The notes under the pieces are model-generated. The model was not told the origin of the DNA. It did no database searches and saw nothing but the letters and a program-made list of their open reading frames with translations. Below, in pieces: positions 32,473 through 62,985 of a DNA stretch of 64,000 nt. A program made the position numbers and the translations under genes. Within the stretch, counting starts at the first letter, position 1. The number at the start of each line of letters is the position of its first letter. The stretch spans positions 1-64,000 of the IMG/VR virus record IMGVR_UViG_3300033075_000957, one strand, 5' to 3'. This DNA is from a virus. Its lineage: Duplodnaviria; Heunggongvirae; Uroviricota; Caudoviricetes.

Positions 32473-32544
32473 AGGATACTAGTTCACCGGAAGAACGCTC
32501 GCTTGATAAGCGAGAAGTACTTGGTTCAACTCCAAGGTATCCTA
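32473..32544 (+). tRNA. tRNA-Ile (anticodon GAT)
   Basis: Acceptor AGGATAC/GTATCCT, D-arm GTTC-ACCGGAA-GAAC, anticodon stem CTCGC/GCGAG with loop TTGATAA, T-arm CTTGG-TTCAACT-CCAAG; 72 nt. Confidence 0.7.
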
Positions 32545-32548
32545 TGAA

Positions 32549-32634
32549 TACTAGGTGGCCGAGGTTGGTCGATGGCACAAAACTGTTAATTTTGCGGCGA
32601 AAGCCCGTCGTAGGTTCAAATCCTACCCTAGTAG
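32549..32634 (+). tRNA. type-II (long variable arm) tRNA, identity uncertain; the 7-nt loop CTGTTAA reads as anticodon GTT
   Basis: Acceptor TACTAGG/CCTAGTA perfect, D-stem GCC/GGC with 13-nt loop, anticodon stem CAAAA/TTTTG, variable arm CGGCGAAAGCCCGTC, T-arm GTAGG-TTCAAAT-CCTAC; 86 nt. Confidence 0.5.
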
Positions 32635-35194: not shown

Positions 35195-36637
35195 ATGAAC
35201 GAATCATTTCTTTGTTTCGATAGCTATAAACTGAGTCATCATGCTATGTACCCTCCGGGTTTAACGAATATGTATTCGTATCTAGAGACACGGAATCCCT
35301 CATCTTATTCAGATAAAACGCTTTTCTTTGGTTTACAAGGAATTCTTAATAAACTTGCAGAACCATTATCAGCATTATATATCGAAGACCTGAGACGTTT
35401 TTGTTCTGTACATTTTGGCTCTACTGAAGTTTTTAATCGGCAATGGAGACGTTTATTCGAAAAACATCATTATTGGCCAGTTCGAATTAAAGCTGTTCCA
35501 GAAGGAACATTAGTACCAATCGGCAATGTTTTACTTACTATTGAAAATACAGACCCCGAATTTCCTTGGGTTACAAATCTTCTTGAAACTTTACTACTCC
35601 AAGTTTGGTATCCAACTACTGTTGCAACATATAGTTACGCAGTAAAAAAGATTTGTAAACAATTTCTCTTTGCAACAACCGATACAAATCGCATCGATGG
35701 TCATTTACAATTCATGCTGCATGACTTTGGTTTTCGTGGTGCCAGCAGTTATGAATCAGCAGGAATTGCAGGTGCGGCACATCTTGTATCTTTTTCTGGC
35801 ACCGATACTATCGCAGCATTTGAGTATATTGTCAGAAATTACTCAAATAGCATTAATTTTGATTGGAAGACGGATTGCGTAGGATTTAGCATTCCCGCTA
35901 CCGAGCATTCGATTATGACTATGCTGGGCGAAGAGGGAGAAGTACAAACGATACAGAATGTGTTAAATGCCTACCCAACAGGGCTCTTGGCGATGGTTAT
36001 TGATTCCTATGACCCTTATCAATTCATTGATAAGTTAGCAGAAAACTTTCGTAAAGAAGTTGAAACTCGTCAAGGAAGAATTGTTCTTCGTCCAGACAGC
36101 GGCGATCCTATTGAAGTTAGTGTTAAAGTGCTGGAACGCATTGGTCAGTATTTCACACCTACGGTAAATAGTAAGGGTTACCGCGTTCTTCCTGACTATA
36201 TTCGTGTTATTTATGGCGATGGAATCAATATCAATTCGATCAAGAATATCCTAACCGCCATGCAACAAGCAGGATGGGCGGCGGAAAATATAGTCTTCGG
36301 ATGCGGTGGCAAGCTGCTACAGTCCCATAATCGAGATAATTTTGGATTCGCGTTAAAAACGTCATCCGTAATTATAAATGGAAAAACAATTGAGGTATTC
36401 AAAAATCCATCAACACAGATAAATAAAATAAGCAAACGAGGAAGACTAGGCTTAGTCCTAAATGGCGATGGATTTACTACTGTTTCTGAAATACGAGCAG
36501 AAAGAGGCGGAAACTATTTAAGAACAGTTCTTGAAAATGGTAAACTGTTTAATATCGAATCATTTGATACTATTAAAAAGCGAACTCAAGAATGGTTTAG
36601 TTCTGAAAATAAATATTGCGACACTTTTGGCTTTTAA
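35195..36637 (+). CDS. nadV: nicotinamide phosphoribosyltransferase
   Basis: N-terminus FLCFDSYKLSHHAMYPPGLTNMYSYLETR matches the NAMPT signature (DSYK..H...YP); 480 aa. Confidence 0.75.
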   Translation: MNESFLCFDSYKLSHHAMYPPGLTNMYSYLETRNPSSYSDKTLFFGLQGILNKLAEPLSALYIEDLRRFCSVHFGSTEVFNRQWRRLFEKHHYWPVRIKAVPEGTLVPIGNVLLTIENTDPEFPWVTNLLETLLLQVWYPTTVATYSYAVKKICKQFLFATTDTNRIDGHLQFMLHDFGFRGASSYESAGIAGAAHLVSFSGTDTIAAFEYIVRNYSNSINFDWKTDCVGFSIPATEHSIMTMLGEEGEVQTIQNVLNAYPTGLLAMVIDSYDPYQFIDKLAENFRKEVETRQGRIVLRPDSGDPIEVSVKVLERIGQYFTPTVNSKGYRVLPDYIRVIYGDGININSIKNILTAMQQAGWAAENIVFGCGGKLLQSHNRDNFGFALKTSSVIINGKTIEVFKNPSTQINKISKRGRLGLVLNGDGFTTVSEIRAERGGNYLRTVLENGKLFNIESFDTIKKRTQEWFSSENKYCDTFGF

Positions 36638-37798: not shown

Positions 37799-38380
37799 AT
37801 GACCTATCCCTTTCTGTACCGTCAACTCGTAGAACGTAAAGTTCCATTTATCCAGTCTGAAAATGGATATTATTATTCTCTAGATAATTGGTTATATACG
37901 AATGGATGGGGAGGAATCACCATTTTTGGTGGTTCTTTTAATCCATTGCATGATGGACATATAGAAATATTAGATATCCTACGATCCAATTACTCATATG
38001 ATGTTTTTGCCGAAATTTCTATTCACCATGTAAGTAAGCCATCTATCACGGAAAACGACTTATACGATCGACTACTTCCGTTTGTTGGACGCTATCCTGT
38101 TTTAGTGACGGACGAGCCTTTAATAGTAAATAAACTTGGAATTCTGAAAGAACATGGCATCGCTCGGGTTACAATGGCTATGGGGGCAGATGTTGCCCAT
38201 AAGTTTATTGCTATGCACGGAAAACTGTTTGTATCTGCTCTAAATACCTCATTCGAGGTTTTCGGACGTAACGGTACAGAAGAGATCAAGCATCCTCCGC
38301 GAAATATGAATTATCATGACATTCCAAACGCTAAGTATCGCGGAATGTCTTCGACCGCTATAAGAGAGGGCAGTGTTTAA
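37799..38380 (+). CDS. nicotinamide-nucleotide adenylyltransferase (NMNAT)
   Basis: ITIFGGSFNPLHDGHIEIL matches the GxFxPxHxGH cytidylyltransferase-fold motif. Confidence 0.6.
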   Translation: MTYPFLYRQLVERKVPFIQSENGYYYSLDNWLYTNGWGGITIFGGSFNPLHDGHIEILDILRSNYSYDVFAEISIHHVSKPSITENDLYDRLLPFVGRYPVLVTDEPLIVNKLGILKEHGIARVTMAMGADVAHKFIAMHGKLFVSALNTSFEVFGRNGTEEIKHPPRNMNYHDIPNAKYRGMSSTAIREGSV

Positions 38381-40719: not shown

Positions 40720-41061
40720 ATGCCAGCAGACGATCAAGTAACTTTACTCATTAAATATTCCGATAATGGAATTGAATTTGATATAGATAAAAATTTATCC
40801 CCCAATCGTATTGGGGGTTTATTATTTTTACTACAATCTAAACATATTTGCGAGGCGTTTAGTAAATATTTAATAGAGTTGTATAAAGACGATTCTCGTC
40901 TTGCAAAAATTGTTGAAACATATAATCAGTGCATGTTTCTTGATCAAATCGAAGAAGAAAATGCGACGGATTGGATAAAGCCATATATATCTAATCATAC
41001 ATTAGAAGAAATCGACACAGAAGATAATTATATAGAAACGGAAGACGAAGAAGATGACTGA
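40720..41061 (+). CDS. hypothetical acidic protein
   Basis: C-terminal ETEDEEDD. Confidence 0.4.
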   Translation: MPADDQVTLLIKYSDNGIEFDIDKNLSPNRIGGLLFLLQSKHICEAFSKYLIELYKDDSRLAKIVETYNQCMFLDQIEEENATDWIKPYISNHTLEEIDTEDNYIETEDEEDD

Positions 41062-41902
41062 AATTAATGCCAAAATTATTGCGGATTCAATTAATCCAGA
41101 CGATAATCGGGTAACTACTTTTTTGTTAGTATATCCAAGATATATACATTCAGAAATTATGACCCATCGGGCATTTAGTCGTAACGCCGCGTCTTCAAGA
41201 GCCATTCCTATTAGCAAGATAATCGATCAGGTATATATGGATCGAGCAATGCCGATTTCTTGGGGTAAGAATCAAAAAGGAATGCAGGCATCTCTTAGTT
41301 ATACAGAACGGGAACAGATTCGTGAATGCGAAGAGGCGTGGATTCATGCCGCTAATTCAGCTATTGAATCGGCAAAACTACTACAAAATATAGGTTTACA
41401 TAAACAGATTGTTAATCGTGTGCTTGAGCCTTTTACATGGATGACGACTCTTGTGACTGCTACAGAATGGGAAAACTTTTATAGTTTACGTTTACATAAA
41501 GATGCCCAGCCCGAATTTCAGCGATTAGCATATGTGATGCTAAAAACATATTTAAGTTCACAACCAGAATATAAAAAATGGGGAGAATGGCATATCCCAT
41601 TTTGTGATAACGATATCGATCTTGAAACCTCTCTCAAGATTGCAACTGCGAGAGCGGCTAGAACATCGTACGTTTCTTTTGATAAGGATCATTCGATTAA
41701 AGATGATATCGAATTGCATGACAAATTAATGGAATCTGGACACTGGTCACCTTTTGAACATGCGTGTCAAGCAGATAAGTATGATTCCTCCGGAAATCTT
41801 TATGGATGGAAACAATATCGACATTTCTTTAAAGATGAAAATAGACGATGCGATCTTAAATTATTATTAAAACAATACGAGGAATATGATGCAAACGCTT
41901 AA
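41054..41902 (+). CDS. ThyX-like flavin-dependent thymidylate synthase (divergent motif)
   Basis: IMTHRAFSRNAASSRAIP resembles the ThyX RHRxxxxxxxSxR signature but has THR in place of RHR. Confidence 0.45.
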   Translation: MTEINAKIIADSINPDDNRVTTFLLVYPRYIHSEIMTHRAFSRNAASSRAIPISKIIDQVYMDRAMPISWGKNQKGMQASLSYTEREQIRECEEAWIHAANSAIESAKLLQNIGLHKQIVNRVLEPFTWMTTLVTATEWENFYSLRLHKDAQPEFQRLAYVMLKTYLSSQPEYKKWGEWHIPFCDNDIDLETSLKIATARAARTSYVSFDKDHSIKDDIELHDKLMESGHWSPFEHACQADKYDSSGNLYGWKQYRHFFKDENRRCDLKLLLKQYEEYDANA

Positions 41903-43947: not shown

Positions 43948-44376
43948 ATGGCCAAAATACGTACACAATTAGTATTTCGTCCTGATAAACCAAATTACGA
44001 TAATCTTGAAAAGATAAAGTTTTTAGAAAAATTAACGTTTCCGACCGATCAGCCCTACGAAAGACACAGTGCGTGTTATTGGTGGGGCTTTTTTTCTGGC
44101 AAAGAAATGATAGGATATGCCGGTTTAGATCCTAATAGAACAAGAGGATTTTTGTGTGCTTGCGGAATTCTTCCTAAATATAGGGGATTAGGACTCCAGA
44201 AAAAAGCTATAGTTCTTAGAACTAAATATGCTAAAAAAATAGGACTTAGCTGCGTCCACACCTATACTAGTTCAGATAATTTTCCAAGTATTTGTTCTTT
44301 ATTAAAATGTGGGTATATAATGTTTAAAGCGGAGAAATATGATCCGCGATGGATATCCTTCAAAAAGGAATTTTAG
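43948..44376 (+). CDS. GNAT-family N-acetyltransferase
   Basis: Motif A-like ILPKYRGLGLQKKAI. Confidence 0.5.
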   Translation: MAKIRTQLVFRPDKPNYDNLEKIKFLEKLTFPTDQPYERHSACYWWGFFSGKEMIGYAGLDPNRTRGFLCACGILPKYRGLGLQKKAIVLRTKYAKKIGLSCVHTYTSSDNFPSICSLLKCGYIMFKAEKYDPRWISFKKEF

Positions 44377-45236
44377 TGATAAATGTATTTCTACAGGATA
44401 AATCGTTTCGTCCAGATTTGTCAACTGTTCGCGGACGGGCACCAGCATATTGGCAGTATGTCGATAATATCGGCCATTCTGCTATAACAGTTAAAACTCA
44501 TTTTGAAATCTTTCAAAATTTTCAAACACATCCAAAACAGAATCAGTTCGGGATGGCGTGGGAATCGCCAGCGATTGTTCCGCAACTATACGATGCATTA
44601 ATGATGCATCATAAAGAATTGAAAAAATATTATCAACATATTTTCACATATCATCCGTCTCTACTCGAACGGGATAGTGATCTTTTTAAATACGCTCCAT
44701 CATATGGTCATTGGATCAATACAAATTATGGCGGTTACTATGATGATAAAATAGAAAAAACGGAATGTTGTTCATTAGTCGTTTCAGATAAACAGATGAC
44801 TGGTGGTCATGCTATGCGAGCGTGGCTCGCACAACGGTACACGAAGCAGGGCCTACATGTGTTTGGGGCTGGCGTCAGTAATCCATTCGCTAAATCTACT
44901 GACGTATTAGGTAGGTATAGATTCCATCTAGCTATTGAGAATCACGTATGCAAAAACTATATTACTGAAAAGATTCTTAATTGTTTTGCTACTGAAACGA
45001 TTCCCATTTATTGGGGTTGTCCAAATCTAGGAGATTGGTTCAATCTTAATGGTGTAATTGGATTCGAAGAATTTGTAGAAGGATGTAAGACTGGTAGGAT
45101 AGACAATTATCTTACCGAATCTTTGTACCGTTCAAAACTCTCAGCGATAAAAGAAAATCTTCAACGCGTACAAGCGTGGGGTGTTCCCATTGAAGATTAT
45201 ATTCACGAAACATATTTGAAAGGATATTATGCTTAA
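44349..45236 (+). CDS. glycosyltransferase, GT10 (alpha-1,3-fucosyltransferase)-like
   Basis: RYRFHLAIENHVCKNYITEKILNCFATETIPIYWG matches the GT10 C-terminal motif (FYLAFENS..DYITEKFW...VPVV.G). Confidence 0.5.
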   Translation: MDILQKGILVINVFLQDKSFRPDLSTVRGRAPAYWQYVDNIGHSAITVKTHFEIFQNFQTHPKQNQFGMAWESPAIVPQLYDALMMHHKELKKYYQHIFTYHPSLLERDSDLFKYAPSYGHWINTNYGGYYDDKIEKTECCSLVVSDKQMTGGHAMRAWLAQRYTKQGLHVFGAGVSNPFAKSTDVLGRYRFHLAIENHVCKNYITEKILNCFATETIPIYWGCPNLGDWFNLNGVIGFEEFVEGCKTGRIDNYLTESLYRSKLSAIKENLQRVQAWGVPIEDYIHETYLKGYYA

Positions 45237-48076: not shown

Positions 48077-48223
48077 GCTATTGACTGCAATAGCAGTTTA
48101 TCAGTGTGTGGGGTAGCAGCCGCCCGCTTGCTTTGGGAGCAAGTATACGCAAGTGCAATTCTTGCCACATTGACTTTGGGCCAGTAACTCAATATGTAGA
48201 GTGCCGATTTTGCAAATCGGAGG

Positions 48224-48833
48224 TTGCGAAGTCGCATTCGCCTGTGTCCATTGATGATCGGTATTAGAATTAAAGAAAACGATTTGTTTGTTGTTGAACA
48301 CGGCGTTAAAAGACGTGCTGAAAAAGTTTTGTGCAAAGTATGTAATAAAAAATTTATTCGCCGGATTGGAAGGAAAACTAGTAGATGTTCTCGATCTTGT
48401 TTTTATAAAACGACACGTCATAAAAAGACTGTTCTTGAATGTTTCAATTGCCATCAAAAATTTGAAAGATTGCCAAATAAACTAAAGGGTGCTAGGCACG
48501 GTATTTATTTTTGTTCAAGAAAATGCAAAGACTTTGCTCAGAGTTTGCGAGGAAATTGTCCAAAAATTAGACCATCGCATTATGGCACTACAGACGAATA
48601 TTTAGTTAAAGATTTTTATAAAGAGCATTTTCATAAAGGATGTTTGTGCGGAGAAAAAGAATTATCTTTTACAAATCCATCATGTAGACGGAAATCATTC
48701 CAACAATCAATCAGAAAATTTAGAAATCGTCTGTGCTAACTGCCATATTAAACGACATCTGGTGTATAAAAACGGAACTTGGACATATTGTATGTCAAAA
48801 TTAACTCCTAGGGATCAGTTAGATAAAGTTTAA
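48224..48833 (+). pseudogene. HNH homing endonuclease interrupted by a frame change near the A-run 48651-48661
   Basis: CxxC Zn modules in the frame of ORF 48224..48739; the HNH core (LQIHHVDGNHSNNQSENLEIVCANCH) continues in the +1 frame 48606..48833; junction is CLCGEKE | KNYLLQIHH. Confidence 0.5.
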
Positions 48834-52327: not shown

Positions 52328-52951
52328 GTGATTTTTCTTATATTCGATCTTAAAGAAAGAATAGATAATAGATATATAACGTTGCCTAAACCTCCGATCC
52401 AGCCTTCGCTTTCTAGAAATCAAGCGAATTCTTTACCAGAAGGAAAAGTTAAAACGATAGCTTTATCTGAAATCAAAAACTATGAAAAAGAATTTGCAGA
52501 ATATCACGGTGATCTTTTTGGATTAACGAAAAAGGCTATACAATGGCATATCGACGAGGATTTCCGACGCGAGCATCAGGCTCGTGAGCGTGAAATCGAA
52601 TATCTAAAACAACAAAAACTGTTTTTAGATACAAAAACCGCATTACCTCCTATCGATCTGCCGAAAGACGAACACATTAATTTTCTTTCTAGTGTTGAAG
52701 AAATCTTTGACGAAGGAGAGAAAATGCAACATTGCGTTTCTTCTTATGCAAAAATGGCTGTTGATGGTGGATTATATATTTTTCATTGTACTTACAAAAA
52801 TGCCGAAGCAACTATCGCTATCAATCCAGACGGAACGGTGCGGCAGTCCCGTGGTCCGGGAAACGAATCTAATAAAGCTTCTGCGTACGCTGAAAAAATT
52901 CTAAAAAAATGGGGAGAAGGCTTCCCAAAGCCTATAATATCTAGTGAATGA
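52328..52951 (+). CDS. hypothetical protein (PcfJ-like C-terminal region?)
   Basis: MQHCVSSYAKMAVDGGLYIFH..RQSRGPGNE resembles PcfJ-type motifs; weak. Confidence 0.4.
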   Translation: MIFLIFDLKERIDNRYITLPKPPIQPSLSRNQANSLPEGKVKTIALSEIKNYEKEFAEYHGDLFGLTKKAIQWHIDEDFRREHQAREREIEYLKQQKLFLDTKTALPPIDLPKDEHINFLSSVEEIFDEGEKMQHCVSSYAKMAVDGGLYIFHCTYKNAEATIAINPDGTVRQSRGPGNESNKASAYAEKILKKWGEGFPKPIISSE

Positions 52952-53652
52952 TTTTTGCTATCACTGGTGATTCGGCTTCTGGTAAGAGTACGCTTGCTGG
53001 ATTATTAAAAAATAATCTACGAGACGCATTCTTGCTCGAATGTGACCGTTATCATCGGTGGGAGCGGGACGACATACACTGGAAATCTTATACGCATCTT
53101 AATCCAGACGCTAATTTTCTCGATAAAATGCGGCAAGATATAGTTTCGCTTAAAAGTGGCGAAGCTATTAAACAGGTCGAATATGACCATAATAATGGAA
53201 AATTTACAGAACCATTAATAGAAAATTCATCTGAAAATATCATAGTATGCGGACTACACTCATTCTATACAGAAGATCATCTTTATGATTTAAAAATATT
53301 TATGGACCCTGATCCTCAATTACGTATTCAGTGGAAGGTTGATCGGGACACCATTAAACGTAATTATTCTGAAGAAAAGGTACTTAAACAAATTGCTGAG
53401 CGTAAAGAAGATTTTGAAAAATATGTATTGCCTCAGCGAAGTTTGGCCGATCTTATCGTTAATTTTAATTCTTTAGGATTAGCTTTGTTGATTCGTCGTA
53501 AATATGATATTTCGAAATTAAAATTAGAAAATCATATCGTAGGCAGCGTCGATCCCGATTTCTACATTCTTCGTTTTGCTCCTGATAGCCGCGAAATACA
53601 TTATCAACAAATCGTATCTATTATTCTTTCTCTTGTGGAGCCAGCAGTATGA
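52948..53652 (+). CDS. P-loop kinase of the phosphoribulokinase/uridine kinase (PRK/UK) family
   Basis: IFAITGDSASGKSTLA Walker A; LECDRYH, YDHNNGKF, CGLHSF, LRIQWKVDRDTIKR parallel PRK motifs (CLDDYH, YNH.TG, EGLH, KFAWKIQRD). Confidence 0.6.
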   Translation: MIFAITGDSASGKSTLAGLLKNNLRDAFLLECDRYHRWERDDIHWKSYTHLNPDANFLDKMRQDIVSLKSGEAIKQVEYDHNNGKFTEPLIENSSENIIVCGLHSFYTEDHLYDLKIFMDPDPQLRIQWKVDRDTIKRNYSEEKVLKQIAERKEDFEKYVLPQRSLADLIVNFNSLGLALLIRRKYDISKLKLENHIVGSVDPDFYILRFAPDSREIHYQQIVSIILSLVEPAV

Positions 53653-54359
53653 AATGGGTTGTTTATTCACATACCGACTATCTAGATGTGTTGGAAGTTT
53701 TTACTGACTACGCCAAAACAATTACAAATAAGGTATTATTGGTAAATGGGCCAGTGCCAGAAACGATACGGAAAGCATACGATGATATTATCTATTACGA
53801 CGATAAACTCCCCTACGCCAGTCGCCTACTGGAGTTGAAGCAATTACCGGATAAGTATATCTTATTTACTCATGATATCGATATTGTACTATATCGTGAT
53901 GATCCTGCTCTAGAGATTGTTCAAGAGTATATGGAGAAATTTGATTTTGATCGTGTTGATCTTAAGCCTAGCGGTAGCGAAAAACCTAACGGTTCCTTAG
54001 ACCGTATTACCGATCCTCTGGACTATCCATACAATGTTAACCCTTCCATATGGAAGCTTGAAACGTTTATGAAGATCATGTCTGATTGGCAAAATGAGAC
54101 TTATCGGACTATCGAAGGTTTGCCAGTTCAACACGATTGTTTAAAATACGAAATTTATCGACCAGTATCTACCTCGTCTGTATCGTGCGGTTATTTTAAG
54201 TGTTTACCTTGGTATCAGTTTTTGCACATTACACATCACGGTAAATTTATGCCTCCATGCAATGAACACATGGATCAAGAAATCGCAAAAATCTATACTG
54301 ATATTTGCGTGAAATATTTAAATAAATCAAAAAGAGAATTTAGAAAGAGTATGTGGTAA
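53649..54359 (+). CDS. hypothetical protein
   Basis: ORF 236 aa. Confidence 0.45.
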   Translation: MKWVVYSHTDYLDVLEVFTDYAKTITNKVLLVNGPVPETIRKAYDDIIYYDDKLPYASRLLELKQLPDKYILFTHDIDIVLYRDDPALEIVQEYMEKFDFDRVDLKPSGSEKPNGSLDRITDPLDYPYNVNPSIWKLETFMKIMSDWQNETYRTIEGLPVQHDCLKYEIYRPVSTSSVSCGYFKCLPWYQFLHITHHGKFMPPCNEHMDQEIAKIYTDICVKYLNKSKREFRKSMW

Positions 54360-55111
54360 TGACAACATTAATCATGCCAATGGCAGGACGCGGATCAAGA
54401 TTTGGAGAAGCTTACAGCCTTCCCAAGCCTCTCTTGCCAGTTGACGGTGGAATACCGATGGTTGTACGAGCTATTCAGGATTTACCTAATTGTGAACGTA
54501 AGATTTTCATCACTCAATGGGAACATGTTCTAAGATATGAAGCTGACCTTCGTCTTAGAAAATATTTTCCCGAAGCTTTGATTTTAGCACTTGGTTATAT
54601 AACTGATGGTCAAGCGACTACATGTAAATTAGGTATTCAGGAGTTTGACGTATCTGATGACGACCCTATAATGATCTCAGCCTGTGATCATGGTCAACTT
54701 TACGATTATGAGGCTTGGCTGGCGACGGAAGCGGATCAATCAATTGATGTTGCAGTCTGGTCTATCACTGGTCACCCAACAATGATTGCCAAGCCGGAGG
54801 CTTGGGGCTGGTTGCGTGCCGCAAACGGCAAAGTTACTGACGTACATTGCAAGTATCTTCCTTCAGACTTAGAGGCGGCAACTACGCCCGTGATAACGGG
54901 CACTATGTTTTTTAGGAAAGCGAAATATTTCCTAGACGGCTTGCGTCGGAACCGGAAACTAGGGTTCCGAACGAATGGGGAATTTTATGTAGATAACGTG
55001 TTAAATCGATGTATTGAAAACGGTCTTAATGTCTGCACGTTCTCCGTGCAGAAATATATTTGTTGGGGATTACCAGAAGATTATGAACAAAATAGAAACC
55101 AAATTGCGTAA
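54353..55111 (+). CDS. sugar-/polyol-phosphate nucleotidyltransferase (MobA/IspD/TarI-like NTP-transferase fold)
   Basis: N-terminus IMPMAGRGSRFGEAYSLPKPLLPVDGGIPMV matches the NTP_transferase signature (PMAGxGxRxxxxxPKxLLxV). Confidence 0.6.
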   Translation: MVMTTLIMPMAGRGSRFGEAYSLPKPLLPVDGGIPMVVRAIQDLPNCERKIFITQWEHVLRYEADLRLRKYFPEALILALGYITDGQATTCKLGIQEFDVSDDDPIMISACDHGQLYDYEAWLATEADQSIDVAVWSITGHPTMIAKPEAWGWLRAANGKVTDVHCKYLPSDLEAATTPVITGTMFFRKAKYFLDGLRRNRKLGFRTNGEFYVDNVLNRCIENGLNVCTFSVQKYICWGLPEDYEQNRNQIA

Positions 55112-55388
55112 TAAAGGATGGGGTAATACACGAATTGATAAAATATCTTGCCCGTCTTGGCCCGAAAAACATTATCGTGTATCTATGTGGGATTTAAACC
55201 GTCCGGTTATTTTTTCTCTCGACGGAGATGCTATAGGCTTTGAATATGCCGATGGCGATGGTCAAACAATTAGTCAGGCTTTTAAGAACTTAAAAAGAAA
55301 TATTGAAAAAGGTTATAGTCGATATTTTCCGGGATCATATAATAATCCTGTAGAAAAAGATTATAAAGCTTGGAAAAGGTCTAAATAA
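55083..55388 (+). CDS. hypothetical protein
   Basis: Internal ATG (MNKIETKLRN..) of ORF 55014..55388. Confidence 0.35.
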   Translation: MNKIETKLRNKGWGNTRIDKISCPSWPEKHYRVSMWDLNRPVIFSLDGDAIGFEYADGDGQTISQAFKNLKRNIEKGYSRYFPGSYNNPVEKDYKAWKRSK

Positions 55389-55513
55389 AATGAATCGAAA
55401 ACATTCTATCCAAATATTAAAAATCGCATTGCCATCGGTGTAGAAACTTTATTAGATAAAATTATCTGGTTTGGATCAGGTCTTTTACTTGGCTTTATGT
55501 TCTGGAAGGTCTT

Positions 55514-56017
55514 ATGCTATTTATTTCACATCGTGGTAACCTAAACGGTCCTCTCCCTGAAAGGGAGAATTCGCCTGATTACATCGATGAGGCAATAGCC
55601 GCAGGATTTCATGTAGAAATCGATGTTCACGTAGTGAATAAAGAAATTTTTTTAGGACACAAAGATTTGACTTACAAAGTAAGTCAAGAGTGGTTAGAAA
55701 AACGTTCTGACAAATTACTTCTACATCTTAAAAATATAGAAGCTGTTTCTTTGTTTTCCAGAACATACTGTGGATGGCATTATTTTTGTAATGAAAAAGA
55801 CGAATTTTCTCTAACAAGTCGTGGATATATTTTATATTGGTCACATAATGTTAAAAAAGATATAGTGAATAAATATTGTCTTTTACCTTTTATCGAAAAA
55901 GAAACTCTTTGGAAATATTCGCATCTAATATCTTCTGCTGGCGGTGTTATTTCAGATTATGCAAAATCATTAAAGGAACTTCATGATATTTCCTCTCGTT
56001 TTAATATGTCATCGTAA
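55514..56017 (+). CDS. glycerophosphodiester phosphodiesterase (GDPD)-like protein, short form (paralog 1)
   Basis: ISHRGNLNGPLPERENSPDYIDEAIAAGFHVEIDVHVV..LGHKD matches the GDPD N-terminal catalytic motif (HRG..ENT...A...GAD.IE.DV..T.DG..VV.HD). Confidence 0.5.
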   Translation: MLFISHRGNLNGPLPERENSPDYIDEAIAAGFHVEIDVHVVNKEIFLGHKDLTYKVSQEWLEKRSDKLLLHLKNIEAVSLFSRTYCGWHYFCNEKDEFSLTSRGYILYWSHNVKKDIVNKYCLLPFIEKETLWKYSHLISSAGGVISDYAKSLKELHDISSRFNMSS

Positions 56018-56537
56018 TCGTCAAGAATCATACTGGCGGAATGAACTTGATTGGAGCCTTGACTTTCGTTTAAGAATTCATATCGTTTCTGATGAAAAAG
56101 AACTTATTGATTATATTAATGAATTTGAAACATATCATATAAATGAAATAATAAAATTACAAGAGACTTGGACTAATTTGGAAACAGATTTTCCTGGTTA
56201 TTACGCTTTATCACTGACGAATGGATATCAGGATTTTTGTTCTTTTTGTATCGATGATATCGATGATCAAATTTTGGACAAAAATTGTCTATCGGATAAT
56301 CTAAACGAAAATTTAGAAGAATATCAGACAAATTGGTTACCTATCAAAGTTAGAATAAATAAGTTTTTATCTCAATCTAAATCTTTAATAGAACAAAAAG
56401 TAAAAGCCAATATAATTGCTAAAGAACAAAAAAAATTGGTACAACAAAAACAAAATGAAGAAAAACGCGAGCAGGCTGAAAGATTAGAATATCAAAGATT
56501 AAAGGCAAAATATGATTCTGATATCTCATCGCGGTAA
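55983..56537 (+). CDS. hypothetical protein with C-terminal K/E/Q-rich coiled coil
   Basis: Overlaps both GDPD paralogs at its ends. Confidence 0.4.
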   Translation: MIFPLVLICHRNRQESYWRNELDWSLDFRLRIHIVSDEKELIDYINEFETYHINEIIKLQETWTNLETDFPGYYALSLTNGYQDFCSFCIDDIDDQILDKNCLSDNLNENLEEYQTNWLPIKVRINKFLSQSKSLIEQKVKANIIAKEQKKLVQQKQNEEKREQAERLEYQRLKAKYDSDISSR

Positions 56538-56988
56538 TTTGTCGGGTCCAGACCCAACAAAAGAAAATTCTCCCTCCTATATCTTGGCTGCAATAGCAGC
56601 CAATTATGATGTGGAAATTGATCTTAGAATGTTAGATGGCAAACTATATCTAGGACACGATAGAGCAGATTATCAAGTAGTGTTCGATTGGCTTTTATCG
56701 CTACGCGATAAATTATGGATACATTGTAAAAACTACGAGGCTATCAAATTTATGTCTGAATGTCAGATATTCAGATGGTTCTGTCATCAAAATGACATGG
56801 CTGGTATAGTAATGGACGGATATTTCTCGGGCTATTTATGGTATTCCGATCTTTCAAGTCTTCCGCACCCGAAATGTATCATTCCTCTACTGTCCCGAGA
56901 ACAGGTGGATGCTTATCCAAAAGAATTTCTAGCCGCTTGCGGCGGCGTATGTTCTGACTATATAGAAGAATTAAGAAATAATCTATGA
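56512..56988 (+). CDS. GDPD-like protein, short form (paralog 2)
   Basis: ISHRGNLSGPDPTKENSPSYILAAIAANYDVEIDLRMLDGKLYLGHDR. Confidence 0.5.
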   Translation: MILISHRGNLSGPDPTKENSPSYILAAIAANYDVEIDLRMLDGKLYLGHDRADYQVVFDWLLSLRDKLWIHCKNYEAIKFMSECQIFRWFCHQNDMAGIVMDGYFSGYLWYSDLSSLPHPKCIIPLLSREQVDAYPKEFLAACGGVCSDYIEELRNNL

Positions 56989-57791
56989 AATTTGAACATA
57001 AAAATAATAGAGTGAATTCCACAAATCTTCGAAAAATGACTTTAATTGAAGAATATCAGCATATTTCCAATCATTTAGGATTATCTGGATATTTGAACGG
57101 TACAGGAGGCAACTGCTCTGTCAAGTCAAATGACGAAATCATAATATCGGCTTCTGGCGAGGGAATAGGAGGCACTCCCTGTCTCTGTAGATTAGAATCT
57201 CTTGCTGACGTAAAAACTGAGAAAGAATACTTCGCTAAAGGGAAAACTCTCGTCATCGAACCCAATGGTCTACGTCCTTCGATGGAATATGGTTTTCACT
57301 TTTTGCTTCCACAAAAATATGTCGTACATTTACATATACCAGCATTAAATGTTATCTTATGTTCACAAGAATCTTTTCAAATCATTATAGATTTATTCGA
57401 TAATATAACTACTTTTTATTATCAATCCTACATTACTCCGGGTTTTGATTTATTTAGAAATTTTTATAATAAAACTTATATTGATCAACGAAAAATATAT
57501 TTTTTAGAAAATCATGGATTAATAGTTACTAGCAACAATGTTACAGAAATATTTGATAAATTATTTTTGATTAATAGCACAATCACCAGTTGGATGAATA
57601 GACCACTTTATCCTGATGCCGCGATTCTTCCAGAAAAGAATATTGCGGAAAATAAAGAAATTTTAAGAAAAATGATAAATCTCGGATTGACGCCTAATTT
57701 TCTTTCAGAAAATCAGATTCAAGAATTAAAAAATTTAGAGTACGAAAAATATCGCTCAGGCCGCGTGGCCGGGAACGATACGGAAAGGTGA
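56985..57791 (+). CDS. class II aldolase/adducin-fold protein (AraD / fuculose-phosphate aldolase-like)
   Basis: LSGYLNGTGGNCSVKS..IIISASGEG and VVHLHIPALNVILCS resemble the N-terminal and metal-binding His motifs. Confidence 0.4.
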   Translation: MKFEHKNNRVNSTNLRKMTLIEEYQHISNHLGLSGYLNGTGGNCSVKSNDEIIISASGEGIGGTPCLCRLESLADVKTEKEYFAKGKTLVIEPNGLRPSMEYGFHFLLPQKYVVHLHIPALNVILCSQESFQIIIDLFDNITTFYYQSYITPGFDLFRNFYNKTYIDQRKIYFLENHGLIVTSNNVTEIFDKLFLINSTITSWMNRPLYPDAAILPEKNIAENKEILRKMINLGLTPNFLSENQIQELKNLEYEKYRSGRVAGNDTER

Positions 57792-58042
57792 ATATGAAAA
57801 TAGAAATTGATTACAATATGAGAGATGTTGCTAGATGGGCGTTTATATCCTATATAATAATTGCAGCAATTGCTGCGATTTGTTTTATTAGCGATGGATA
57901 TCGCACTGAACGTAAATACGCTTTAGAACACGGTTTAATTCCACAAACTACAGTGATCCATCGACAGCCAATGCTGATGGACGAATACACGAAATCAAAT
58001 ACTATTGGTGATTTTAAACCAAATGATTGGTTAACTAAATAA
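57788..58042 (+). CDS. membrane protein
   Basis: One TM helix. Confidence 0.4.
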   Translation: MNMKIEIDYNMRDVARWAFISYIIIAAIAAICFISDGYRTERKYALEHGLIPQTTVIHRQPMLMDEYTKSNTIGDFKPNDWLTK

Positions 58043-58044
58043 CT

Positions 58045-58368
58045 ATGCAGATAGATGTAAATCGTATATTTTCTAGCTTTTTACTTTTAACGATTCTTTC
58101 AATTTTAATTGAGCGTGCTCTTTCCTTATTTTTTGAACATCAGGCAATTTCTTGTGTTATTCGAGGAAAAGGATTAAAAGAACTTATCGCTTTAGCGGTC
58201 AGTTGGTCTGTTTGTTATTATTGGAAAATTGATACAATTTCTAGTATTTTGAATGACGAATCTCAAAATTTAGGAATCTTTCTGACAGCAGCAACAATAG
58301 CTGGTGGTAGTAAGGCAAGTATCGTGCTATTTCAAGATGTTATTGGAGCGACAAAAAGGAATGTGTAA
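58045..58368 (+). CDS. membrane protein
   Basis: Hydrophobic helices. Confidence 0.4.
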   Translation: MQIDVNRIFSSFLLLTILSILIERALSLFFEHQAISCVIRGKGLKELIALAVSWSVCYYWKIDTISSILNDESQNLGIFLTAATIAGGSKASIVLFQDVIGATKRNV

Positions 58369-58574
58369 TGAGTAAAGAACCTAAAAGCGGTGTAATAATT
58401 TACACTTCACGGAGTGGTCAACAGTATCCGTCATTTTTTGACGAAAAAAATGATTACGATTTGGCCGAATCTCCGTCTGGAGATTTTAGGATTATTGAAA
58501 TAAATAATTATACTACATCGGCATTCTATGCGTGTGATGTTAAAGAAATAGTAAAGGCAATTGTGAATGAGTGA
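58368..58574 (+). CDS. hypothetical protein
   Basis: ORF 68 aa. Confidence 0.4.
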   Translation: MSKEPKSGVIIYTSRSGQQYPSFFDEKNDYDLAESPSGDFRIIEINNYTTSAFYACDVKEIVKAIVNE

Positions 58575-59566: not shown

Positions 59567-59983
59567 ATGGTTAAAATAATGAAAATTCTTTTTTTAGATG
59601 ACGAAAAATATCGGCATAATGAGTTTGCTCAAAATGCTATTGGAGCTACGGTTACACATGTCTATTCAGCCGACGAAGCGATACGCGAATTACAGACCAA
59701 TGAGTACAGTTTAGTCTTTCTCGATCATGATTTGGAACCAGCACATTATCGCGAACGCAAACCAGAAGATAAAGATGGTCAATATATAGCCGATAAAATC
59801 GTTGAACTTGATATTGAGTTGCCCTTTATCGTTATTCATTCGCTTAACCCATTAGGGGCTGCCAAAATGTTGGAGAAACTCGGTACTCTATATCGTAGCC
59901 GAGCTATATACGTCCCAATGGGATGGAAATTCTTTGCGGTTACTCAGAACGGGTGGTCTTTTAACTATAATTTTCCTGATTAA
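59567..59983 (+). CDS. stand-alone response-regulator receiver (REC/CheY-like) domain protein
   Basis: KILFLDDE .. SADEAIREL .. YSLVFLDHDL .. matches the receiver-domain pattern (D-D pocket, conserved Asp in LVFLDHDL, Ser/Thr and Lys positions plausible). Confidence 0.5.
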   Translation: MVKIMKILFLDDEKYRHNEFAQNAIGATVTHVYSADEAIRELQTNEYSLVFLDHDLEPAHYRERKPEDKDGQYIADKIVELDIELPFIVIHSLNPLGAAKMLEKLGTLYRSRAIYVPMGWKFFAVTQNGWSFNYNFPD

Positions 59984-60051: not shown

Positions 60052-62985
60052 ATGACTACATTTATCGACCATAACGAAATTTTAAGTCCAGAGTTTTTGC
60101 AGAAATATGTTGGCAAGCACCCAAAATGGGGTTTTAACGGATTAGGATATATAGTATATAAAAGAACTTATGCCAGATGGATTCCAGAACTTAAGCGGAC
60201 TGAAGAATGGTGGGAAACCGTCGCTAGATGCATTCGCGGTGCTCAAAAAATTGGGGCAGGATATACGGTACAGGAAGCAGAGCGTTTATACGATCATGTT
60301 TTTAATCTGCGTTGTAATTTTGCCGGGCGTATGTTATGGCAATTGGGAACAGAAACTGTTGATAAGATAGGACTTCCGAGTCTTTGCAATTGCTGGAATG
60401 TTAACATCAATTCTTTAGAATCATTTTGTTTTATCTTCGAGCATCTTATGCTCGGTGGCGGGGTGGGCTTCAGTGTAAAAAAGGAACATGTCCACGAATT
60501 ACCAAAGGTTAAAGACGGCGTAGTCATCAAACATCTGGCCACTAAAGACGCTGATTTTATAGTCCCTGATTCCCGTGAAGGATGGGTAGAATTACTACGC
60601 AAAATACTTAATGCTTATTTTGTAACCGGAAAAGGCTTTACTTACTCTACGATTTTAATTCGTGGAGCCGGAGAAAAGATTAATGGATTCGGCGGTACGG
60701 CCAGTGGTCCACAAATTTTAATTGATGGACTAAATAATATTTTTGGCGTGATCTCAAAGCGTGTTGGTAAGAAATTAAGAAGTATTGACGCATTAGATAT
60801 CGCTAATATTCTAGGCAGTATCGTAGTTGCCGGAAACGTTAGAAGAAGTGCTCAGTTAGCTCTTGGCGATGCGGATGATAAATTATTTCTTAATGCTAAA
60901 CGCTGGGACTTAGGTAATATTCCTAACTGGCGTGCTATGTCAAATAATACTGTAAGTGCAGATGATTTCACTTATCTTAGCAATGATTTTTGGCGTGGAT
61001 ATGAGGGCGACGGAGAGCCTTATGGTTTAGCAAATATTGATTTATGTCGAAAGTTTGGCCGTTTAATCGACGGGCCTATGTCTAAATGTTCTTTGTATCC
61101 ACAAAGAGAAGATAAGGTAGAAGGTTTAAATCCTTGCCAACCAAAATGGGCGTTTGTTTTAACTAAAAACGGTATTAGACAATTTGGCAAGCTACAGATT
61201 GGAGACGAAATTTGGTCTTCAGAAGGTTGGACGAAAGTTGTAAAGAAATGGTCCACCGGTATTAAAAATGTGTATAAATACACAACTACAGCAGGTATTT
61301 TTTATGGAACAGAAAACCATAGAGTACTTAGTGACAACAAAAAAATCGAAGTACAAGAAGCGGAATCTATCGACATTCTTCGAGGAGGATTATCAACAGA
61401 AGACGATCTGCTACCACAAGACATCATGGATGGACTAGTTATTGGCGATGGTATGGTGCATAAAGCATCCAATAATTTAGTTCTTTTATGTATTGGACAA
61501 GATGATCAGGATTATTTTCAGAGCGAAATTACACCGCTGATACTTATCGATCGCTTTGGTATAAGCGACAATGCTTATGAAATACAAACCACAATTAAAT
61601 CAGAAGAACTTGCTAGAACTTTTGATCGAACAATCCCTGATCGTTTTGTAACTGGATCGGCGAAAACAATTCAAGGATTTTTAAGAGGGCTATATTCTGC
61701 CAACGGTTCGGTTTGCGGCAATCGTATTACATTAAAAGCAACTTCGCTTGCCCTGATCGAACAGGTACAAGTGATGCTTAGTGCTATTGGAATCAAATCT
61801 TATTATACCACAAACAAATCGTCATTGGTAACATTTGAAAACGGCGAATATCTTTGTAAACAAAGTTATGATTTAAACATTACTATTGATCGCCATCAGT
61901 TTGTTAAAAAAATTGGATTTATTCAATCTTATAAGAACGATAAAATTCGGAGTTCCAATCCAGTTCAAAATGAAAAAGTATCCTACGATATTAAATCTGT
62001 TGAACTGGTATCTCGCGAAGAAGTTTTTGATATTACTGTTGACAATCTTTCGCACACCTATTGGACTCATGGATGTAACGTGTCTAATTGTGCCGAAGCC
62101 ACGCTTGAACACGGTGAACCGTGTGATCTAGCTGAACAATATCTTCACAATCTTTCTTCACAGGAAGAATTTAATGATTGTGCAATGTTGCTATATAAAA
62201 CGCAAAAAGCTATCTTACGTTTAGATTCTATCTCCGATTGGACTAACGCAGTAGTGAAGCGAAACATGCGTGTTGGTCTTGGCGTAACTGGTGTTTGTGA
62301 AGATATCAAAAAGATTGTATGGTTAGATGATGGATATCGCTCACTTCGAGCGATAGATAAAGAGTGGTCTAAGAAACGTGGCTGGCCTGAAAGTATAAAG
62401 CTAACGGTTGTCAAGCCGTCAGGCACGTTAAGTTTGCTCGCCGGATGCACTCCCGGATGCCATCCCGCTTACGATAAATACTATATCCGTAGAGTACGGA
62501 TGGCCTCTTCTGATTCATTAGTTAATACTTGTCGTAATTTAGGTTGTAAAATTGAATATCAGATCGGTTTTGATGGAAAAGAACAGCACGACACTGTGGT
62601 TGTAGAATTTCCTTGCAAAGCCTCAGATAACGCAATTATTGCCAAAGATATGACTGCGGTAGAACAATTAGAAATTATGAAGACTTTACAGTCAGTTTGG
62701 GCCGATCAGGCTGTATCGGTAACAGTTTATTATCGTAAAGAAGAATTGCCAGCAATTAAATTATGGCTTGAAGAAAACTATGAAACATCGGTTAAAAGTG
62801 TAAGTTTCTTACTTCATAACGACCACGGATTCCGGCAGGCCCCGTATGAATCTATTACTAAAGAAAAATATGAAGAACTTATTAAGAATATGAAACCTTT
62901 AAATTCGTTGATAACTAATAATGATATTGGTGGCGAATTAGTAGAGGGTGTAGAATGCGTTAATGGAGCATGTCCCATTAGATAA
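60052..62985 (+). CDS. ribonucleotide reductase catalytic subunit (class II-like) carrying an intein
   Basis: 977 aa; MLGGGVGFS glycine-rich motif; active-site NPC|AE split by the intein (GLNP-[intein]-CAEATLE); C-terminal CVNGAC redox pair. Confidence 0.65.
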   Translation: MTTFIDHNEILSPEFLQKYVGKHPKWGFNGLGYIVYKRTYARWIPELKRTEEWWETVARCIRGAQKIGAGYTVQEAERLYDHVFNLRCNFAGRMLWQLGTETVDKIGLPSLCNCWNVNINSLESFCFIFEHLMLGGGVGFSVKKEHVHELPKVKDGVVIKHLATKDADFIVPDSREGWVELLRKILNAYFVTGKGFTYSTILIRGAGEKINGFGGTASGPQILIDGLNNIFGVISKRVGKKLRSIDALDIANILGSIVVAGNVRRSAQLALGDADDKLFLNAKRWDLGNIPNWRAMSNNTVSADDFTYLSNDFWRGYEGDGEPYGLANIDLCRKFGRLIDGPMSKCSLYPQREDKVEGLNPCQPKWAFVLTKNGIRQFGKLQIGDEIWSSEGWTKVVKKWSTGIKNVYKYTTTAGIFYGTENHRVLSDNKKIEVQEAESIDILRGGLSTEDDLLPQDIMDGLVIGDGMVHKASNNLVLLCIGQDDQDYFQSEITPLILIDRFGISDNAYEIQTTIKSEELARTFDRTIPDRFVTGSAKTIQGFLRGLYSANGSVCGNRITLKATSLALIEQVQVMLSAIGIKSYYTTNKSSLVTFENGEYLCKQSYDLNITIDRHQFVKKIGFIQSYKNDKIRSSNPVQNEKVSYDIKSVELVSREEVFDITVDNLSHTYWTHGCNVSNCAEATLEHGEPCDLAEQYLHNLSSQEEFNDCAMLLYKTQKAILRLDSISDWTNAVVKRNMRVGLGVTGVCEDIKKIVWLDDGYRSLRAIDKEWSKKRGWPESIKLTVVKPSGTLSLLAGCTPGCHPAYDKYYIRRVRMASSDSLVNTCRNLGCKIEYQIGFDGKEQHDTVVVEFPCKASDNAIIAKDMTAVEQLEIMKTLQSVWADQAVSVTVYYRKEELPAIKLWLEENYETSVKSVSFLLHNDHGFRQAPYESITKEKYEELIKNMKPLNSLITNNDIGGELVEGVECVNGACPIR
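61135..62088 (+). mobile_element. intein (318 aa) with LAGLIDADG homing-endonuclease domain, inserted before the catalytic Cys of the RNR NPCxE motif
   Basis: Begins CQPKWAFVLTKNG (block A), TENHRVL (block B), LAGLIDADG motifs GLVIGDGMVH and GFLRGLYSANGSV, ends ..CNVSN followed by the extein Cys. Confidence 0.55.

Follow-up and report, generated by a model that had tools for sequence, protein, structure and literature searches.

A compact phage operon with pared-down GDPD-fold proteins, probably dedicated to the synthesis and transfer of a nucleotide-activated sugar

The 64-kb window analysed here is part of a 156-kb phage genome (IMG/VR record IMGVR_UViG_3300033075_000957; source contig 156,166 bp) and harbors a gene cassette whose conserved part consists of six genes, encoding a phosphoribulokinase (PRK)-like kinase, a GT-A-fold glycosyltransferase-like protein, a nucleotidyltransferase (NTP-transferase), two short GDPD-like proteins, to which we refer as mini-GDPDs, and a class II aldolase-like protein. 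This operon probably converts a phosphorylated precursor of the pentose or ketose type into a nucleotide-activated sugar, or a similarly activated sugar-like phosphate, with its own GT-A enzyme transferring the donor to a glycoconjugate. That the genes form one functional unit is supported by their overlapping stop and start codons, by the conservation of gene order and by fusions in relatives, in line with a first-pass annotation of the region, which had proposed the synthesis of a nucleoside diphosphate (NDP)-linked donor by a single gene unit. The cassette is a compact, previously undescribed form of the nucleotide-sugar and glycan islands of phages, and its core enzymes are uncharacterised. 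For twenty years, such islands, described as ‘LPS/cell-wall’ islands (LPS, lipopolysaccharide), have been listed as sets of auxiliary genes with no clear purpose. The present analysis singles out within them a recurrent and compact enzyme core, informatively fused in some of its carriers, that is found in many aquatic phages and is shared with bacteria of the SAR11 group, which are among the most abundant in the ocean.

Enzymes encoded in the cassette

The region between positions 52948 and 57791 contains eight co-directional open reading frames (ORFs) on the + strand (Table 1), all at the coordinates given in the first-pass annotation, whose listed ORFs are real but whose gene list omits the GT-A protein. 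Stop and start codons of the conserved genes overlap in succession (52948/52951, 53649/53652, 54353/54359, 56512/56537, 56985/56988 and 57788/57791), a hallmark of translational coupling within an operon. The two other ORFs, encoding 101–124 and 184 amino acids (aa), have no homologues in 85 related loci and match no family. The shorter of them is called as a 101-aa gene at 55083–55388 in a Logan assembly of the same phage. Both are absent from the related Logan contig L005, where the two GDPD genes abut, and from a 155.8-kb sister phage (L124). Since they lack homologues and are missing in the closest relatives, the ORFs at 55014–55388 and 55983–56537 are probably lineage-specific insertions, and the membership of the small ORF at 55083–55388 in the system is doubtful. 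A role of either the 124-aa or the 184-aa product as divergent HAD phosphatase was considered and dismissed, as the hidden Markov model (HMM) of the mini-HAD family described below did not match any of the small ORFs of the window.

The mini-GDPDs are pared-down GDPD barrels with an intact catalytic set. At the level of sequence profiles, neither paralogue matches the GDPD models of Pfam or NCBIfam at E<=0.1. Both proteins display the hallmarks of the fold, comprising a TIM barrel, the catalytic His/Arg pair, metal-binding Glu/Asp residues and a second His, and the earlier proposal of two paralogous GDPD-like proteins of about 160 aa at 55514 and 56512 was thus right with respect to fold and catalytic motifs. 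The family to which they belong contains at least 1480 clusters at 90% identity, all with a length of ~145–165 aa and all without annotation. Its large size and uniform length suggest that the short form of the protein is a trait of the family and not the result of a truncation. The two copies of the window are 37% identical. Copy A, whose orthologue in L005 shares 73% identity, has retained H6, R7, E18, N19, E35, D37, H49, H71 and K73, and it deviates at four highly conserved positions (D50K, W69L, H93N and C146I). A duplicated GDPD was found only in the window, in L005 and in one further locus.

The kinase at 52948, described in the first-pass annotation as P-loop protein of the phosphoribulokinase/uridine-kinase family, is confirmed as such by its match to the Pfam family PRK (PF00485, E=2.8e-32, 112.6 bits at a cut-off of 22). 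Its P-loop of the sequence G-x-S-x-S-G-K-S-T is intact, and the PRK motifs D-x-x-H-x-x-x-R, Y-x-H and K-x-x-R-D-x-x-x-R are kept in 30 phage homologues, with conservation of the P-loop and of D33/H36/R40, Y79/H81 and K130/R133/D134/R138. Matches in the Protein Data Bank (PDB) include the phosphoribulokinases 9qko (4e-32), 5b3f (1e-29) and 6hzk (6e-26), whereas uridine kinases score at ~1e-9. The protein did not qualify as bona fide phosphoribulokinase, with 171 bits for the NCBIfam model PRK07429/NF005655 (cut-off 236), in a match spanning profile positions 10–186 of 326, and 43.8 bits for NF011997 (cut-off 362). With 234 aa, it is devoid of the C-terminal ~140 aa of true phosphoribulokinases (311–359 aa). 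Uridine-kinase models also missed their cut-offs (TIGR00235/NF004018, 59–73 bits against 180–220). By its sequence, the kinase is thus PRK-like, and much nearer to phosphoribulokinases than to uridine kinases, and a putative sugar-phosphate kinase. A literature search returned nothing relevant on phage PRK as auxiliary gene or on the structures 9qko/9qkn of a ‘cyanobacteria-specific phosphoribulokinase’.

The NTP-transferase matches the Pfam family NTP_transf_3 (PF12804) just over its cut-off (E=5e-7, 30.4 bits, cut-off 27) and phrog_3980 at 3e-34. It carries the signature PMAGxGSRF...PKPLL, in which P9-M-A-G-x-G-x-R-F and P24-K-P-L are conserved, and its best PDB match, a weak one, is the NDP-sugar pyrophosphorylase 4evw. 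No NCBIfam model was matched by the protein of the window, which therefore failed as equivalog of IspD or TarI, and its orthologue in the sister phage matches models of the GlmU/RmlA type, compared to 17 bits for ispD at a cut-off of 181. Hence, of the MobA/IspD/TarI-like nucleotidyltransferase assigned previously at 54353, the relationship to NTP_transf_3 holds while the specific likeness to IspD and TarI does not, and the sequence looks more like that of sugar-1-phosphate nucleotidyltransferases of the GlmU/RmlA type.

The ORF at 53649–54359, named U236, had remained unannotated. Its structure was predicted with the help of database homologues and a subsequent fold search led to its identification as GT-A protein; in a profile search against the PDB, the sole match was to a designed protein and was discarded as spurious. 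The predicted model combines a Rossmann-like fold of the GT-A type with a DxD motif for the binding of metal and nucleotide-sugar, suggesting that the cassette carries its own transferase.

Finally, the protein at 56985, correctly proposed earlier to have a class II aldolase/epimerase fold, matches the Pfam family Aldolase_II (PF00596) with E=2e-11 (44.4 bits, cut-off 22.2). Its best PDB match is the uncharacterised protein 3m4r (8e-6), and the fuculose aldolase FucA (6btd) is found at 0.05. Positions conserved in 45 homologues (G42, N43, S45, S57, G58, S99, E101, H105, H115, H117 and H177) encompass the phosphate-binding G-N-x-S and S-G motifs, the catalytic Glu and three zinc-binding His, as expected for a member of the family. 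It could not be assigned to FucA, RhaD, AraD, MtnB or the ribulose-1-phosphate (Ru1P) aldolases, whose equivalog models gave at best 12–45 bits in light of cut-offs of 137–1240. The PHROG families of the NTP-transferase, the mini-GDPDs and the aldolase-like protein are all function-unknown.

Table 1. Genes of the cassette and of adjoining or potentially related regions of the window.
Feature	Position	Strand	Evidence or remark
PRK-family P-loop sugar-phosphate kinase, 234 aa	52948..53652	+	Pfam PF00485, PDB matches
GT-A-fold glycosyltransferase-like protein (U236), DxD motif H75-D76-I-D78	53649..54359	+	fold search
Single-domain nucleotidyltransferase, NDP-sugar pyrophosphorylase type	54353..55111	+	NTP_transf_3, phrog_3980
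Small ORF, 101-124 aa	55083..55388 (longest reading from 55014)	+	no family match
Mini-GDPD paralogue A, 167 aa, divergent copy	55514..56017	+	phrog_34507, 7e-31
184-aa ORF between both GDPD copies, charged helical C-terminus	55983..56537	+	no family match
Mini-GDPD paralogue B, 158 aa, canonical copy, full catalytic motif set	56512..56988	+	phrog_34507
Class II aldolase/epimerase-fold enzyme with zinc site, 268 aa	56985..57791	+	PF00596, phrog_13212
Three small ORFs, 84/107/68 aa, first two hydrophobic	57788..58574	+	overlap cassette 3' end; cassette membership uncertain
GT10-type (fucosyltransferase-like) glycosyltransferase	44349..45236	+	Glyco_transf_10 E=1.5e-11; 8 kb upstream of cassette
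GNAT acetyltransferase adjoining GT10-type gene	43948-44376		GNAT E=1.9e-9

Recurrence of the module in viral and cellular genomes

A megablast search with the cassette against 50,697 phage records gave no match, and thus no close sequenced relative, and a tblastn search with the kinase gave only one weak match. To describe the genomic context of the mini-GDPD, we collected 80 IMG/VR loci encoding the protein, clustered all of their ORFs and built family HMMs, using simple procedures for ORF calling and clustering. As these loci are the best matches to one GDPD query and come from related lineages, the following percentages describe this sample only, and a family is counted where its gene shares the strand of the mini-GDPD at a distance of no more than 6 kb. 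The NTP-transferase is found in 89% of the loci, the aldolase-like protein in 52%, a ~100-aa protein termed c4 in 51% (41/80), a domain termed c2x in 48% (38/80), NAD-epimerase/dehydratases in 45%, FkbM methyltransferases in 38%, the kinase in 36%, glycosyltransferases of the families GT61 and GT11 in 29% and 14%, respectively, and the U236 GT-A in 11%. In these viral loci, some of which contain fusions, the co-clustering of the cassette families is far beyond chance.

A typical locus shows the order kinase – aldolase – c4 – GDPD – NTP-transferase, and its island neighbours are NAD-epimerase/dehydratases, GT61, GT11 and FkbM methyltransferases. In 14 loci, kinase and aldolase-like protein are part of one polypeptide (Pfam PRK 1e-35, Aldolase_II 5e-19), which assigns both enzymes to one pathway. 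A c2x domain precedes the kinase in the fusion proteins of 12 loci, and the common NTP-transferase of ~450 aa is a fusion of an HAD_2 domain of the beta-phosphoglucomutase family (1e-27) with an RmlA/GlmU-like domain. With its motifs DxDxT, T-A-R-G, K and DD, c4 constitutes a minimal HAD phosphatase (mini-HAD), whose best curated match, a weak one, is the ‘capsule biosynthesis phosphatase’ of Pasteurella (TIGR01689, E=1.7e-4). In the cyanophage S-SM2 (L001), the c4 proteins SSM2_207/210 (5693–6004 and 7331–7663) are annotated as ‘phosphoheptose isomerase’, a GenBank label that looks wrong in view of their sequence. The c2x domain of ~220–250 aa is of unknown function and either stands alone beside the mini-GDPD or forms the N-terminal part of a kinase fusion, with examples in the sister phage (8613–10004) and in S-SM2 (6444–7334, labelled ‘capsular polysaccharide biosynthesis protein’) and a faint match to DUF7796. 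Scanning the window with the family HMMs identified no c2x, mini-HAD, GT61, GT11, FkbM or epimerase.

Two relatives resemble the cassette in its reduced form. Contig L005 shows the order NTP-transferase – GDPD-A – GDPD-B – aldolase, with both intervening ORFs being absent, and the sister phage the order c2x-kinase – U236 GT-A – NTP-transferase – aldolase – GDPD with a single copy of the latter. The sister phage also shares the genes for Ro60 and nicotinamide phosphoribosyltransferase (NAMPT), which are described below for the window.

Searches by tblastn located the mini-GDPD in 17 records of Synechococcus myoviruses. In S-SM2, the protein is gene 208, annotated as ‘hypothetical’, with a ‘phosphoheptose isomerase’ on one side and a ‘capsular polysaccharide biosynthesis protein’ on the other. 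Just upstream are a class II aldolase/adducin (206) and a 522-aa ‘dN-sugar pyrophosphorylase’ (204), which is a double NTP-transferase, and glycosyltransferases are found downstream; the context in B23 and DSL-LC03 is similar. The NTP-transferase, both GDPD copies and the aldolase-like protein of the window all match genes of the S-SM2/B23/DSL-LC03 cluster, with the NTP-transferase aligning to both halves of S-SM2 gp204 at 35% and 26% identity and, in B23 and DSL-LC03, to the C-terminal half of their HAD-NTP fusion.

Among species-representative cellular genomes, the mini-GDPD is encoded in 36 loci, which are mostly from Pelagibacteraceae and include one complete genome. The other carriers are Candidate Phyla Radiation (CPR) bacteria, Nitrospiraceae and metagenome-assembled genomes (MAGs) of Bacteroidota, and some of the ‘cellular’ loci (e.g. 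L095 and L096) may be phage contigs binned into MAGs. The conserved minimum in cells is the GDPD together with the HAD-NTP-transferase, which form the tightest pair across genomes. In a Lishizhenia MAG, this pair is found alongside the kinase-aldolase fusion. In SAR11, the pair is part of tiny islets flanked by housekeeping genes, and two of them illustrate the context, the first with the order GT4 – GDPD – HAD-NTP – U236-like GT-A between recJ and an integrase gene, the second with the order GDPD – HAD-NTP – WavE (‘lipopolysaccharide synthesis’) between gyrB/parE-like genes and lepA/pheT. Their LPS-type glycosyltransferases tie the module to the synthesis of cellular surface glycans.

Proposed pathway and alternatives

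PRK-family kinases phosphorylate a ketose phosphate at C1, and enzymes of the class II aldolase family act on ketose phosphates. In the pathway that we propose, the PRK-like kinase would phosphorylate a sugar phosphate at C1, similar to phosphoribulokinase acting on ribulose-5-phosphate, and the aldolase-like zinc enzyme would remodel the ketose phosphate by epimerisation or aldol chemistry, with the fusion of both proteins indicating that the two steps are consecutive. Editing of the phosphates would then leave a single activatable phosphate. In most relatives, this task would fall to the mini-HAD phosphatase or to the beta-phosphoglucomutase-type HAD fused to the NTP-transferase, and in the minimal cellular form the beta-phosphoglucomutase-type domain would supply the activatable phosphate. 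Subsequently, the NTP-transferase would form the NDP-linked donor and the GT-A enzyme would transfer it. The scheme of kinase, small HAD and NTP-transferase is analogous to that of heptose pathways and of the phage NDP-arabinose pathway, which proceeds from a sugar-5-phosphate via the 1,5-bisphosphate and the 1-phosphate to the NDP-sugar (PMC13326640). For the mini-GDPD, which is the universal partner of the NTP-transferase, homology predicts a metal-dependent phosphodiester or phosphoryl-transfer step on a precursor or product, which the retained catalytic set of a phosphodiesterase makes its most likely function. As the phage of the window carries a divergent GDPD copy and no mini-HAD, the former might substitute for the latter.

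The donor is most likely a nucleotide-activated sugar that probably derives from a pentose- or pentulose-phosphate; its substrate and acceptor, like the role of the mini-GDPD, are what we infer from the comparison of genes. The likeliest acceptor is a glycan of the host envelope or a glycoconjugate of the virion or elsewhere, and not DNA, as the cellular module adjoins LPS-type glycosyltransferases. The richness of cyanophage islands in glycan glycosyltransferases, the LPS-type enzymes in SAR11, the GT-A fold and the lack of base-hypermodification enzymes among the scanned ORFs all favour a glycoconjugate. A host envelope glycan has been proposed as target of cyanophage LPS genes (PMC9602691); proteins of the virion are the other candidate for the cassette.

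Several observations weigh against this proposal. None of the enzymes reaches the curated cut-off of a characterised equivalog, and we thus infer every substrate assignment. To our knowledge, no NDP-sugar pathway employs an enzyme with GDPD fold, whose role is a gap in the model, and the phage of the window does not contain the HAD step that is demanded by the analogy. There is only one adjacent transferase and the cassette is located beside genes of nucleotide metabolism (dCMP deaminase and ribonucleotide reductase, RNR), which leaves room for an acceptor other than a glycan. Moreover, the 80 viral loci, as best matches to the GDPD query, are not phylogenetically independent.

The GDPD fold with its intact catalytic motifs, the match of the NTP-transferase to NTP_transf_3, a MobA-like model that includes IspD and TarI, and the tight pairing of the two proteins across genomes would fit a different pathway, in which the GDPD frees glycerol-3-phosphate from glycerophosphodiesters, or the kinase supplies a pentitol phosphate, and the NTP-transferase makes a CDP-polyol for a phosphodiester-linked decoration. 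CDP-ribitol and CDP-glycerol had specifically been suggested in the first-pass annotation, which in this respect has not been borne out. Neither a TarJ-type reductase nor phosphotransferases of the TagF, TarL, LicD or Stealth type were found among the cassette proteins and the commonest scanned neighbour families. Besides, the NTP-transferase and its orthologues match sugar-1-phosphate models (GlmU, RmlA and GalU), with the described match to IspD being marginal, its usual fusion partner, a beta-phosphoglucomutase-type HAD, would be needless for the activation of glycerol-3-phosphate, and the transferase of the cassette is a GT-A enzyme of the Leloir type. We therefore regard the synthesis of a CDP-polyol as unlikely. 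A similarly different destination would be the phage DNA, if the GT-A enzyme attached the NDP-sugar to a modified base as in the arabinosylation of RB69 and DLP3. The latter systems resemble the cassette in their architecture, with a dedicated donor pathway and a transferase in a lytic phage, and they share the kinase/small-HAD/NTP-transferase logic of its relatives (PMC13326640). The cassette is also located 0.8 kb upstream of the dCMP-deaminase-like gene and 2.3 kb upstream of the gene for RNR. Still, DNA hypermodification, an option raised in the first-pass annotation, finds no support in the window and appears quite improbable. No hydroxymethylase or hydroxylase of the ThyA type, dNMP kinase or dCTPase is present among the scanned ORFs of the 64-kb window of the 156-kb genome, where ThyX and dCMP deaminase supply canonical dTMP and, with the class II RNR, constitute an ordinary dNTP supply. 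Similarly, the SIS isomerase, the bifunctional nucleotidyltransferase-kinase AfhE, the small HAD AfhF, the ThyA-homologous synthase of 5-hydroxycytosine (5hoC) and the GT-B arabinosyltransferases of the arabinosyl-5hoC systems were found neither in the cassette nor among the scanned ORFs. The known DNA sugar transferases of T-even phages exhibit a GT-B fold, in contrast to the GT-A fold of the cassette enzyme, and the module resides beside GT4 and WavE LPS genes in SAR11 and CPR bacteria and in cyanophage islands rich in GT11, GT61 and GT25.

Kinase and aldolase could instead serve auxiliary carbon metabolism by rerouting ribulose-5-phosphate via the bisphosphate to Ru1P and further to dihydroxyacetone phosphate and glycolaldehyde, similar to the non-carboxylating pentose bisphosphate pathway of archaea, with the GDPD scavenging phosphate or glycerol-3-phosphate. 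This would agree with the proximity of the kinase to true phosphoribulokinases, its preserved sugar-phosphate-binding motifs and the known interference of cyanophages with the Calvin cycle and with pentose phosphate metabolism. Relatives also match haloarchaeal models of ribulose-1,5-bisphosphate 5-phosphatase and Ru1P aldolase, but these matches are weak and far under the cut-offs. In the window and the sister phage, the genes for NTP-transferase and GT-A lie between those for kinase and aldolase in one operon, in relatives kinase and aldolase are placed among epimerases, glycosyltransferases and methyltransferases, and the module is found in a heterotrophic Bacteroidota MAG (L113), all of which renders such a role very improbable. 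A variant in which both enzymes make xylulose-1,5-bisphosphate as inhibitor of Rubisco was dropped in light of the operon with NTP-transferase and glycosyltransferase and of non-autotrophic carriers.

Returning to the proposed synthesis of an activated sugar, its product might, as a tentative extension, be an undescribed one such as an NDP-pentulose or a rare pentofuranose obtained from ribulose- or xylulose-5-phosphate via a bisphosphate. The mini-GDPD would in this case be a biosynthetic and not a scavenging enzyme, with its divergent copy replacing the mini-HAD in the phage of the window, and the product would be a widespread and so far unrecognised constituent of glycans in marine and freshwater bacteria (SAR11) and in those that are targeted by phages. 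If true, this would bear on the masking of phage receptors, superinfection exclusion, the surface variation of SAR11 and the catalytic range of the GDPD fold. Donor and acceptor are directly testable, as the versions of six genes in the window and of five genes in the sister phage are small enough to be expressed and assayed.

Surrounding genes and comparison with known systems

Outside the cassette, the GT10-type gene (Table 1) has homologues in 14 related viral loci containing the GDPD, which suggests that the phage may encode additional glycan-modifying steps, and this gene, although not contiguous with the cassette, may be part of the same glycan system. The three small ORFs at the 3' end match no Pfam family, and two of them have homologues of 63–67% identity located 3' of the cassette in L005. 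Directly 5' of the cassette, at 52328–52951, a PcfJ-like protein (PF14284, E=7e-13) is encoded by a gene whose stop overlaps the start of the kinase. Other loci have no homologue of this gene next to the module, and a connection with the cassette is therefore improbable. An Rfam scan of the window identified tRNAs only and no riboswitch hinting at a ligand, and counts of promoter and terminator patterns are near the expectation from shuffled sequences.

The window contains 11–12 tRNA genes, including a tRNA at 48178–48250 that was detected by Rfam (38.7 bits) directly after the tRNA-Pro at 48102–48174 and that is not in the ARAGORN list. At 30753–32363, a protein with Ro60/TROVE and vWA domains is encoded, directly followed by tRNA-Ile and tRNA-Asn (32472–32634). 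Bacterial Ro60 orthologues usually act with Y-RNA-like or tRNA-like RNAs, and the Rfam scan reported no Y RNA. Together with the many tRNAs, genes of the RNA-repair or tRNA-modification type, encoding a SpoU methylase, two radical-SAM proteins, an HD-domain protein adjoining an RNA ligase, a metallophosphoesterase and a ‘cyclic-phosphate processing receiver’ (cREC_REC) protein (6349–7763, 11424–12380, 13442–15144, 33117–33782 and 59567–59983), suggest a phage toolkit for tRNA/RNA repair or counter-defence. NAMPT at 35195–36637 and a cytidylyltransferase-like protein at 37799–38380, which is probably an NMNAT, constitute a pair for NAD salvage. For the ThyX-like protein at 41054–41902 (282 aa), the match to the Thy1 model falls into two parts, the best of which covers only profile positions 59–185 of 191. 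The RNR at 60052–62985 is a class II (B12-type) enzyme of 977 aa with an intein-like insertion. In tblastn searches, it aligns in two pieces with phage RNRs that lack an interruption and with the ‘intein-containing RnR’ of Nodularia phages, and the best matches, at ~50% identity, are from an uncultured spring phage and a Maribacter phage.

Comparison with characterised systems defines how the cassette departs from each of them. Phosphoribulokinases of cyanobacteria, plants and archaea (9qko, 6hzk and 5b3f) are the best-scoring relatives of the kinase and share its P-loop and motifs, whereas the phage protein is shorter, devoid of the C-terminal domain and below the NCBIfam cut-off, and its relatives are fused to aldolase-like or c2x domains in a glycan and not a Calvin-cycle context. 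Compared to GDPD, GlpQ and UgpQ proteins (1o1z, 7e0v, 5t91 and the C-terminal domain of phage K gp155, 9f49), which contain 220–330 aa, the mini-GDPD is reduced to ~150 aa and it is genomically paired with an NTP-transferase instead of genes for the uptake or catabolism of glycerol-3-phosphate.

The systems for NDP-arabinose and arabinosyl-5hoC (RB69 gp51-55, DLP3 gp81-83 and HY126 AfhE/AfhF) follow the same logic as the module, with the conversion of an intermediate of the pentose phosphate pathway to a bisphosphate, its trimming by a small HAD (1xpj-like), an NTP-transferase and phage glycosyltransferases (PMC13326640). This small HAD and the mini-HAD of the relatives are proteins of one kind. 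The cassette differs by the absence of a SIS-type arabinose-5-phosphate isomerase, by a kinase of the PRK family in place of an APH/choline-kinase-like domain fused to the nucleotidyltransferase, by its aldolase-like and GDPD-like enzymes, which have no counterpart there, and by its GT-A instead of a GT-B transferase, and the window is devoid of a synthase for 5hoC or 5-hydroxymethylcytosine.

The nearest known kind are the ‘LPS gene clusters’ of cyanomyoviruses (S-SM2, S-SSM7, P-SSM2; B3/B23, DSL-LC03, Bellamy, S-CAM9 and S-PRM1), described by Sullivan et al. (2010, PMC3037559), who left it open whether the genes have a function or serve as ‘stuffer DNA’. A literature search found no paper on phages that combine PRK, class II aldolase, nucleotidyltransferase and GDPD, and the statement of the first-pass annotation that the arrangement matches no described phage pathway holds in the sense that no characterised pathway fits; it has to be amended by the fact that homologues of three components adjoin each other in the cluster of S-SM2 and its relatives, which was reported in 2010 with no function assigned. 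These homologues, S-SM2 204, 206 and 208, share 35%, 26% and 43% identity with the respective genes of the window and are spaced on the same order of magnitude amid sugar-nucleotide enzymes and glycosyltransferases. Unlike these T4-like cyanomyoviruses, the phage does not look T4-like within the window, which carries genes for Ro60, NAMPT, a RuvB-like protein and RNA repair. The glycan genes of the phage are reduced to one adjacent GT-A and the GT10-like gene 8 kb off, with no GT61, GT11, epimerase or FkbM. Compared to S-SM2, which has no PRK-like kinase, the window contains this enzyme, carries a GT-A of the U236 type in place of GT61, GT11 and GT25, and combines the absence of a mini-HAD with a duplicated mini-GDPD in a cassette that is stripped to six conserved genes.

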